From NCBI GenBank assembly GCA_020510985.1, contig CM035843.1, positions 157,251,922 through 157,315,921 on the forward strand: a DNA stretch of 64,000 bases, in the 5' to 3' direction. The position numbers and the translations under genes were made by a program. How positions within the stretch are numbered: position 1 is the first letter of the stretch; the number at the start of each line of letters is the position of its first letter. This stretch comes from Pholidichthys leucotaenia (lineage: Eukaryota). This document shows, piece after piece, positions 22,370 through 23,830 of the stretch. Below the pieces are notes generated by a model, which ran no database searches, was not told the origin of the DNA, and saw only the letters and a program-made list of their open reading frames with translations.

Positions 22370-23830
22370 AGTCCAGAAGTCCTTGTGTGGCAGCAGAGCT
22401 ATGACGCAGATGAAGACTTTGGTGTCATTTCTGATGATGATATAAAAGCGCCTCCAGCTTCTGAAGCCAGAAGCTGGCGCCTCCAGCCTCCAGCCTCTCT
22501 TTCAATTATGCGGAGTTCTTTCTCTTCTGCTCCACCTCCTCCACCACCAGTACCACTAGATCATGCTGTGGCACCTGTCATCTGCCACGCTATGTCCAGC
22601 CCTCCCTCTACACGACATGCTGCCTCACCCATCATCTCCCGCCAACCACCGCCACCACCACCACCACCACTACCCCGACAGAAACTCAAAAAGATGAGCT
22701 CATTTCAGATGTCACTTGTTTCCTCCGATCCTCCAGTGAAAGTGATATCTAAAGGCATCCTGAAGGACTCAGGATGCCTCTCAGTTGCTAAGGAAGAACA
22801 AAAACAGGACACCGTCATTCGACGACGTGGTTTTGCTTCTAGACCTGCACGTGCCCAGTCTGCTTTCATTAAGACTATGGCTGTCTCTAATGCTCTTTCA
22901 CCTGGAGATGCTTCTCTGGATTTTTCATTTAAATCTGCTTCTGAGGGTTTATCATTTACACGTGCTTTGCAGGCTTCTTCCTTTGGAGCTGCTCCTCAGA
23001 GTTTACAAACTGGAGATGCTCCTCTTGGTTTTTCATTTGGAGCTGTTCCTCAGGCTTCTTCCTTTGGAGCTGCTCCTCAGAGTTTTTCATTTGGAGCTGC
23101 TTCTCGGAGTTTTTCATTTGGAGCTGCTCCTCAGAGTTTACCAACTGGAGATGGTCCTCAGGGTTCTTTATTTGGAGCTGCTCCTGAGAGTTTTTCATTT
23201 GGAGCTGCTCCTCAGGGATTACCAACTGTAGCTGCTCCTCAGAGTTTACCAACTGGAGATGCTCGTCTTGGTTTTTCATTTGGAGCTGCTCGTCAGAGTT
23301 TACCACCACCTGTAGCTGCTCTTCAGGGTTTTTCATTTGGAGCAGCTCCTCAGGCTTCTTTATTTGGAGCTGCTCCTCAGAGATTACCAACTGGAGCTGC
23401 TCCTCAGAGATTACCAACTGGAGCTGCTCCTTTCGGTTTATCATCTGGAGCTGCTCCTCAGAGTTTTTCATTTGGAGCTGCTCCTCAGGCTTCTTCCTTT
23501 GGAGCTGCTGCTCAAAGTTTGCCAACTGGAGCTGCTTTGCCACAGTTCAACCAAATCAAAAGCAGTGAAGTGTTTGATGATTTTGTCGGCTCTTCTCTTG
23601 AAACTCATCTTTCAGTAGAAGAGTGTTGCATAATGAAATACAGTCTACGGCCTGATGACGCTTCTGAGGTTCTGCCATCTGGAGGCTTTCAGACTCGTAT
23701 GGAGAGTTATGACACGTATGAAGGTTCTTGGTCGACAGAAGAACATGGCGACGTCATGGATGAAATTGAACCCACCACAGATGACGATGACATGAGCCAG
23801 TACACGGTAGCCCCCGTCCAGAAGTGAGTC
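22370..23830 (+). CDS. Exon-like ORF, family copy 4: 1.44-kb open exon with canonical acceptor (…ttccttcctag|AGTCCAG) and donor (…GTCCAGAA|gtgagtc). Encodes an acidic N-terminus 'DADEDFGVISDDD', proline-rich stretches, ~16 FxFG-type 11-aa repeats (FSFGAAPQS[LF]P…) and an acidic C-terminus
   Basis: ORF track 22385-23827 (starts at a GTG; the frame is open back to the AG at 22369). The in-frame stop TGA overlaps the GTGAGT donor, so splicing would bypass it. Confidence 0.5.

Follow-up and report, generated by a model that had tools for sequence, protein, structure and literature searches.

Among phenylalanine-glycine (FG) nucleoporins, the FxFG domains of the Nsp1 type have long (~19 aa), highly charged spacers. 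A disordered FG region is also combined with a role in the ARF pathway in AGFG1 and AGFG2 (ArfGAP with FG repeats; HRB/RIP), which are not pore proteins. Coding minisatellites that form in-frame variable number tandem repeats (VNTRs) are known in mucins, involucrin and salivary proline-rich proteins. The ribosomal stalk proteins P0, P1 and P2 carry the C-terminal tail SD[D/E]DMGFGLFD (PMC3280276, PMC2632931). Here we describe a putative coding exon (the 22370 exon, named after its first nucleotide) on the plus strand of a 64,000-nucleotide stretch of Pholidichthys leucotaenia contig CM035843.1 (hereafter the window, with positions numbered from its first letter). Judging from sequence evidence, this segment is on balance probably a genuine spliced exon of an unannotated, lineage-restricted and fast-evolving gene in a transposon-saturated, teleost-like region. 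The best reading of the locus also assigns this gene to a small family of neighbouring exons that arose by tandem duplication and have an acceptor and an acidic N-terminal motif in common. The 22370 exon is an orphan disordered exon with FG-domain-like chemistry and is not a demonstrable nucleoporin.

From position 22370 the reading frame is open for 485 codons (22370-23824), up to a TGA at 23825-23827. The nearest in-frame stop upstream is the TAG of the acceptor itself (ttcctctccacttctgtccttcctag/AGTCC, the slash marking the splice junction), whereas the downstream TGA lies within the donor sequence GTGAGTC. A first-pass annotation had reported both an open exon between splice-type sites and a stop embedded in the donor, and both observations hold (485 codons, an acceptor tract with 18 of 20 pyrimidines, donor GTGAGT). 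There are 98 stop-to-stop open reading frames (ORFs) of at least 100 codons in the window, and this is the only one with its stop inside a GTRAGT donor; it is likewise the only one bounded by a strong acceptor at one end and a GTRAGT donor at the other. The hexamer GTGAGT occurs 9 times on the plus strand of the window.

A tandem array that is kept in frame is open almost by construction. The test for stops was therefore limited to the unique parts of the exon, with 175 codons on the 5' side of the array and 93 on the 3' side (268 in total). These contain no stop in frame 1, compared with 11.9 expected, and 5 to 24 stops in each of the remaining five frames; frame 1 was open in none of 20,000 dinucleotide-preserving shuffles of the non-repeat parts. 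The exon is also a compositional island, with a GC content of 0.485 against ~0.31 in its flanks, and displays three-base periodicity (GC content of 0.61, 0.57 and 0.28 at the first, second and third codon positions, the last being referred to as GC3). Acceptor, donor, ORF statistics, three-base periodicity and GC island all fit a coding exon. Given the stop test, the shuffles, the splice signals and the composition, neither the ORF nor its exon-like boundaries are due to chance, and the attributes of a spliced internal exon (a polypyrimidine tract with an AG acceptor, a GTRAGT donor and an ORF beyond chance length) are all present. The minus-strand ORF opposite the array (22956-23543) is only a mirror image of the repeat, as had been proposed, and the minus-strand frames have stops in the non-repeat parts.

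The 10-mer GTCCAGAAGT is found just twice in the window, at 22371-22380 (from the second base of the exon) and at 23816-23825 (across the donor). A target-site or internal duplication was considered for this pair and was rejected, as extended similarity, terminal inverted repeats and poly(A) were not found and the sequence following the first copy is homologous to that of the paralogues described below.

The central part of the exon is a minisatellite. Tandem Repeats Finder reports a period of 27 nt (20.6 copies, 74% matches) and a higher-order period of 54 nt (11.8 copies), and parsing in register resolves the array into 23 units of 27 nt and one of 30 nt. The consensus unit TTTTCATTTGGAGCTGCTCCTCAG[A/G]GT encodes FSFGAAPQ[S/G]. 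Seven units are of the FSFG type, five are S[S/L]FG, approximately nine are LPTG, LQTG or LPTV types without FG, and the first three are degenerate; units of the FSFG and S[SL]FG types are interleaved with those of the LPTG type. There are 13 FG dipeptides in the 217 aa of the array (~1 per 17 residues), and its charge is low, with 7 acidic (D+E) and 7 basic (K+R) residues (6.5%). The first-pass annotation counted about 16 units of 11 aa. Both Tandem Repeats Finder and register parsing give instead a period of 27 nt (9 aa) and 24 units; the 11-aa unit FSFGAAPQS[LF]P[TG] was obtained because an FSFG 9-mer and the start of the next LPTG 9-mer had been read as one.

The array contains no frame-breaking indel and no stop in frame 1, compared with 2 to 22 stops in the other frames. 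Four of 81 single changes to the consensus create a stop codon, and approximately 108 changes are seen, so that ~5 stops would be expected under neutrality; none is found. A unit length divisible by three, an intact frame and a coding frame without stops are thus all observed here, as in a coding minisatellite.

All of the peptide motifs quoted in the earlier annotation were recovered from the translation, namely the acidic start DADEDFGVISDDDI, PPPPPPVPL, QPPPPPPPPLPRQK, EECCIMKYS and TDDDDMSQYTVAPVQK. There is an in-frame ATG with A at position -3 at codon 47. AlphaFold2 returned a mean predicted local distance difference test score (pLDDT) of 42.5 and almost no secondary structure; the prediction was run on the single sequence, without an alignment, and such predictions are weak. 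The low pLDDT fits, and suggests, an intrinsically disordered product.

We infer that the exon is spliced and translated. An upstream exon would join it in phase 0, and the donor would leave two nucleotides of a codon for the exon that follows. The product of ~485 aa would comprise an acidic Phe-Gly motif, two polyproline tracts, the near-uncharged array of 217 aa and a strongly acidic tail. In the array, composed of Ala, Pro, Ser, Gly, Gln and Phe, FSFGAAPQS would alternate with LPTGAAPQS. Its length would be expected to shift by unequal exchange in steps of 27 or 54 nt, always with the frame kept. Such an array might act as a cohesive multivalent linker or scaffold through weak Phe-mediated contacts, and the acidic and polyproline motifs might be short linear docking sites.

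A 20-mer from the acceptor tract of the 22370 exon (TTCCTCTCCACTTCTGTCCT) has exactly four copies in the window (at 3136, 5856, 8464 and 22344), all on the plus strand, where 0.01 would be expected. The other three copies belong to paralogous exon starts, designated ex3174, ex5894 and ex8508. Over the last 50 intron nucleotides, ex3174 is identical to ex8508 at 47 of 49 positions and to the 22370 exon at 41 of 47 (range 87-96%). Over the first 135 exon nucleotides, by comparison, identity is 100 of 132 between ex3174 and ex8508 and ~79 of 110 with the 22370 exon. The acceptor is better kept than the exon, which implies constraint on splicing, accelerated change of the exon, or both. Within the exon, 22428-22458 is 87% identical to 3248-3277 (acidic motif), and a second homologous block of ~55 nt lies at about 22519-22572. 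Indels between the paralogous exon starts are all in frame (3, 21 and 3 nt), and the acidic motif of the 22370 exon differs from that of its paralogues by an in-frame indel of 3 nt.

Part of this family has been duplicated together with its surroundings. A unit of 2,720 bp, containing a family exon, a minisatellite and a Tc1 copy, is present in tandem with 99.8% identity (region 3100-8540), which reflects either an artefact of the assembly or a very recent event. The unit has a third copy, of older date (80% identity), that begins at 8434. The likeness of ex8508 to ex3174 stops after ~135 exon nucleotides, and the frame of ex8508 ends at 8760. When the 22370 exon was compared with the window by tblastn, only the match to itself was obtained, and the FG array and the C-terminal tail are absent from the paralogues. 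That the ORFs at 3174, 5894 and 8508 are paralogues, as proposed, therefore holds for the acceptor and the 5' part of the exon, both of which are shared, and not for the array and the tail; the relationship is real but confined to the acceptor, which is conserved, and to about the first 200 nt. The further suggestion that the family joins a stalk-like motif with FG repeats is not supported: the paralogues do not share the FG array, and in the 22370 exon the motif is degenerate (DEDFGVISDDD).

The exact P-stalk tail motif SDEDMGFGLFD is found in ORFs 3165-3635 and 5885-6355 (plus strand), where it is internal and close to the candidate ATG. No Pfam family was matched by the ex3174 protein, and there was no match to it in a word-indexed search of 5.8 billion protein clusters. 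In ex3174 and ex5894 a donor-like GTGAGA (3184 and 5904) directly follows the candidate start codon (ACATGG/GTGAGAAG), and ex3174 and ex8508 have a weak donor-like GAT/GTAAT 3' of the DDD motif. In view of these internal donor-like sites, the exons at 3174, 5894 and 8508 may be much shorter than their ORFs.

A number of observations weigh against a functional exon at 22370. The ATG of the paralogues (GAC-ATG-G/A) is GTG at the homologous site. Synonymous and non-synonymous differences number 4 and 21 between ex3174 and ex8508, and 9 and 36 in the comparison with the 22370 exon, so that the synonymous excess of purifying selection is not seen; this is a weak test that compares paralogues only. 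Within the array, third codon positions are those that vary least, with 6 synonymous and 77 non-synonymous changes relative to the consensus. The pattern probably arose because two or three subtypes of the unit were amplified, and not through selection. The array shows no classical signature of purifying selection; it is also largely open in other frames. GC3 is 0.28, compared with 0.78 in a neighbouring conserved exon that encodes an ARF-type GTPase domain (see below). Part of the exon, a block of ~55 nt with 80% identity, is shared with a long terminal repeat (LTR) at 15868-15926. Finally, no homologue was found by the word-indexed search of 5.8 billion protein clusters, no true homologue by a full phmmer scan of 1.84 billion representatives, and no copy of the ORF by an exact-sequence look-up of five ORF variants in a collection of 15 billion proteins.

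Several of these points would also be expected of a decaying paralogue or pseudo-exon, that is, a recently coding copy that is now unused and drifts neutrally, with its ORF as an uneroded relic. The loss of the ATG, the prevalence of non-synonymous changes, a GC3 at or under the background level and the missing database homologue are consistent with this explanation, as is the state of the neighbouring family members, which look truncated or recently duplicated amid transposon insertions. However, 485 intact codons without a frameshift, together with a strong acceptor and a strong donor, would be unexpected after long neutral drift, and the ATG is dispensable if an upstream exon provides the start (alternatively, there is the in-frame ATG at codon 47). 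We consider decay somewhat unlikely.

The exon-like unit might also be part of a repetitive element, as an ORF derived from or carried by a transposon, rather than of a host gene. The surrounding 64 kb consist almost wholly of Tc1, long interspersed nuclear element (LINE), LTR and hAT sequence, including Tc1/Sleeping-Beauty-type transposase remnants, LINE reverse transcriptases, one hAT fragment and a complete LTR retrotransposon. An A-rich minisatellite of 22-23 bp (AAAAAGTCACAAATTTATGAGG) forms more than 10 arrays on both strands and flanks all members of the exon family; it also flanks the ARF exon. The stretch shared with the LTR amounts to 35-55 nt. The match is closest in ex3174, where 3313-3347 are identical to the LTR at 34 of 35 positions, and in the 22370 exon the shared block encodes the first polyproline stretch. 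By Smith-Waterman alignment, the block of the 22370 exon scores 52 against LTR 15868-15919 (shuffle maximum 31), and the LTR-shared blocks overall score 52-65 against shuffle maxima of 27-31. This block is short, however, and the ends of the unit carry splice signals, not terminal repeats. The copies are found only in tandem and all point the same way, whereas the minisatellite is also seen, on either strand, at sites that lack the exon. The ORFs neighbouring the 22370 exon were assigned one by one with Pfam, and the exon itself has no transposase, reverse transcriptase or gag similarity by Pfam. A transposon origin thus appears very unlikely. An Rfam scan of the whole window matched no RNA family.

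The similarity to nucleoporins, proposed in the first-pass annotation, was pursued by database searches. FSFG motifs, an FG frequency of ~1 per 17 residues, low-charge spacers and predicted disorder would all agree with a bona fide FG-nucleoporin or a transport-receptor-binding FG domain, and a disordered domain with spaced FG and hydrophilic low-complexity spacers is indeed present, if with ~9 of the 24 units (about a third) lacking FG. In Pfam, the whole exon matched no family at E<=1, nucleoporin FG models included, and its N- and C-terminal non-repeat parts matched none at E<=0.01; a sequence search of the PDB with the exon gave no match. The phmmer scan returned 21 matches at E<=1e-3, in every one of which the alignment is confined to the repeat region. 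The best of them (P0001, E 2.8e-13) comes from a protist and combines a Nup98-96 autopeptidase domain with 9-aa repeats of its own. Alongside it rank a C-type lectin, an astacin protease, an ion channel, a retrotransposon polyprotein and other proteins of this sort, all of which have 9-aa tandem repeats. Matches that are restricted to the 9-aa repeats of unrelated proteins point to matching of repeat and composition, not to ancestry. Patterns for the repeat unit and for the acceptor tract had no match in scans of metagenome and viral contig DNA, and nothing applicable was found in the literature on GFGLFD outside stalk proteins or on non-nucleoporin FG repeats.

The exon has neither homology to a Nup family nor a pore-anchoring domain (Nup98 autopeptidase, Nup62 coiled coil, Nup153 zinc fingers, Nup214 propeller, POM121 transmembrane segment or Nup50 RanBD), and the curated profiles (Pfam Nucleoporin_FG families) do not recognise it. 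The FG-Nups of vertebrates are encoded by conserved single-copy genes, and searches of this kind would have picked them up, which further counts against a nucleoporin. Nucleoporin identity, for which no homology was found in Pfam, the PDB or the large databases beyond repeat-confined matches, is thus highly improbable. Since membership failed on homology, profile and anchor, the array is classed as something that possibly works like an FG domain, not as a nucleoporin. A phase-separating or FG-like low-complexity domain is a reasonable physical inference from its sequence.

The evidence makes unlikely not only a nucleoporin but also a non-coding minisatellite with a fortuitous ORF, which we dismiss as scarcely credible: the array is open in several frames, antisense included, and its variation is not concentrated at third positions, but the ORF extends into unique sequence on both sides, by 175 codons 5' and 93 codons 3' of the array (0 of 20,000 shuffles), and ends exactly at splice signals.

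If the 22370 exon is indeed part of a spliced gene, the ARF exon mentioned above is of interest as a possible partner. This intronless exon has ARF1 as its best PDB match (~61% identity to ARF1). A strong acceptor (tttctcttgcag/A) precedes it, its frame offers no ATG ahead of the P-loop, and the N-terminal amphipathic (myristoyl) helix of ARFs is missing. Lacking a start codon and this helix, and with a strong acceptor, it must be the last exon of a larger plus-strand gene. Its acceptor (58498/58499) requires two nucleotides from an upstream exon, and the donor of the 22370 exon (23823/23824) leaves exactly two. The resulting AA/A join gives an uninterrupted ORF of 714 aa and the reading frames are compatible, a phase match that has a one-in-three prior by chance. 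Of the upstream plus-strand donor-like sites (GT[AG]AG[TA]) in that phase, only the one at the 22370 exon belongs to a long non-transposon ORF. A homology search with the ARF exon was dominated by matches to the ARF domain and was uninformative on the 60-aa N-terminal extension.

The 22370 exon might accordingly encode the variable, disordered N-terminal part of a lineage-specific FG-repeat-ARF chimera of 714 or more aa with ARF at its C-terminus. In such a protein, the membrane-anchoring helix of a small GTPase would have given way to a cohesive scaffold of FG-like, polyproline and acidic parts, derived from exons that carry the exact tail motif of ribosomal P0. We know of no FG-repeat-ARF architecture, and the join, if true, would represent an undescribed small-GTPase architecture. 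Against this link, the two exons are far apart in codon usage and the intervening 34.7 kb are full of transposons; we regard the chimera as quite unlikely.

What would be new at this locus is a homologue-less, lineage-specific protein; disordered proteins with an in-frame minisatellite are already familiar. If the 22370 exon is expressed, it would represent a young, taxon-restricted gene assembled from duplicated exons, a short LTR-shared block and a growing in-frame minisatellite whose chemistry has come to resemble, by convergence, that of nuclear-pore FG domains. It might then serve as a model for the de novo origin of cohesive low-complexity domains, and show to what extent FG-like sequence by itself is enough for condensation or for the binding of transport receptors. 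An exon that is not expressed would be just another ORF decaying among transposons. The features of the locus are listed in Table 1.

Table 1. Features of the 22370 exon, its paralogues and its surroundings (positions in the window; / marks a splice junction).
Feature	Position	Strand	Remarks
Putative internal coding exon	22370..23823	+	1,454 nt; phase 0 start; 484 codons and AA at end
Upstream intron 3' end: polypyrimidine tract and TAG acceptor	22325..22369	+	18/20 bases pyrimidine
Splice donor GTGAGT	23824..23829	+	Context CCAGAA/GTGAGTC; in-frame TGA inside
Acidic motif DADEDFGVISDDDI	22403..22444	+	Residues 12-25; degenerate counterpart of SSSDEDMGFGLFDDD in paralogues
Block encoding SSFSSAPPPPPPVPLDHAV (first polyproline)	22519..22572	+	Common to ex3174 and neighbouring retrotransposon LTR
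Second polyproline stretch QPPPPPPPPLPRQK	22643..22684	+	
In-frame 27-nt coding minisatellite	22895..23545	+	24 units of 9 aa (one 10 aa); 217 aa
Acidic non-repeat C-terminal tail	23546..23823	+	22 D+E, 5 K+R in 93 aa; EECCIMKYS and TDDDDMSQYTVAPVQ
Antisense ORF (EEQLQMKNS...)	22956..23543	-	Mirror image of array; not considered coding; minus frames with 2-15 stops in non-repeat flanks
Paralogous exon start ex3174	3115..3347	+	Same acceptor; ATG at 3180; SSSDEDMGFGLFDDD
ex5894, identical copy of ex3174	5835-6067	+	Inside 2,720-bp tandem duplication
Paralogous exon start ex8508	8443..8628	+	Same acceptor; ATG; SSDEDMVFGSLSDD
Complete LTR retrotransposon	15787-21050		DUF7041 gag, reverse transcriptase, RNase H, integrase; LTRs 15787-16350 and 20487-21050 (564 bp, 99.8% identical)
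ARF1-like GTPase-domain exon, intronless	58499..59189	+	Pfam Arf 3e-66; 34.7 kb downstream of 22370 exon
A-rich minisatellite sites	1082-1140, 3037-3911, 5757-6631, 21136-22026, 24262-24559		
A-rich minisatellite sites, continued	26591-26845, 57307-57771, 59599-60156, 63030-63073		

Compared with known systems, the 22370 exon has partial counterparts in several. With the stalk proteins P0, P1 and P2 it is connected through its family: ex3174 has the exact SDEDMGFGLFD, and at the homologous position the 22370 exon retains DEDFG...DDD. In stalk proteins the motif functions as a free C-terminus, whereas in the 22370 exon it is internal, N-terminal and degenerate. Neither a motif at the extreme C-terminus nor an N-terminal stalk domain was found, and Pfam detected no Ribosomal_60s or other stalk domain in the exon.

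The likeness to AGFG1 and AGFG2 would be relevant only if the 22370 exon were really joined to the downstream ARF exon. These proteins differ in that an ArfGAP zinc finger lies at their N-terminus, their FG motifs are irregularly spaced and an ARF GTPase domain is absent, and no AGFG similarity was detected in the Pfam or phmmer searches with the exon. The VNTRs of mucins, involucrin and salivary proline-rich proteins are unrelated in unit sequence and flanking domains. They do resemble the array in a unit that is a multiple of three, a higher-order (54-nt) structure, a strictly kept frame and fast divergence.

The Nup98-type protist protein shares with the array a 9-aa period (QPLSFGGAT/QPVPYGG) and composition. 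It has an autopeptidase domain, to which nothing in the 22370 exon is comparable, and its motif is SFGG/PYGG instead of FSFG. The two sets of repeats are best regarded as analogous, not homologous. Similarly, the FxFG/FSFG nucleoporins (Nsp1, Nup1 and Nup2 of yeast; Nup153 and Nup62 of vertebrates) are like the array in an FSFG core followed by Ala, a short regular period, predicted disorder and approximately one FG per 15-20 residues. In contrast, the spacers of the 22370 array are only 5 residues long and nearly uncharged (AAPQS), LPTG replaces FSFG in a third of the units, and there is no anchor domain and no homology. Physically, the array is closer to a low-charge FG domain than to a charged FxFG domain of the Nsp1 type.

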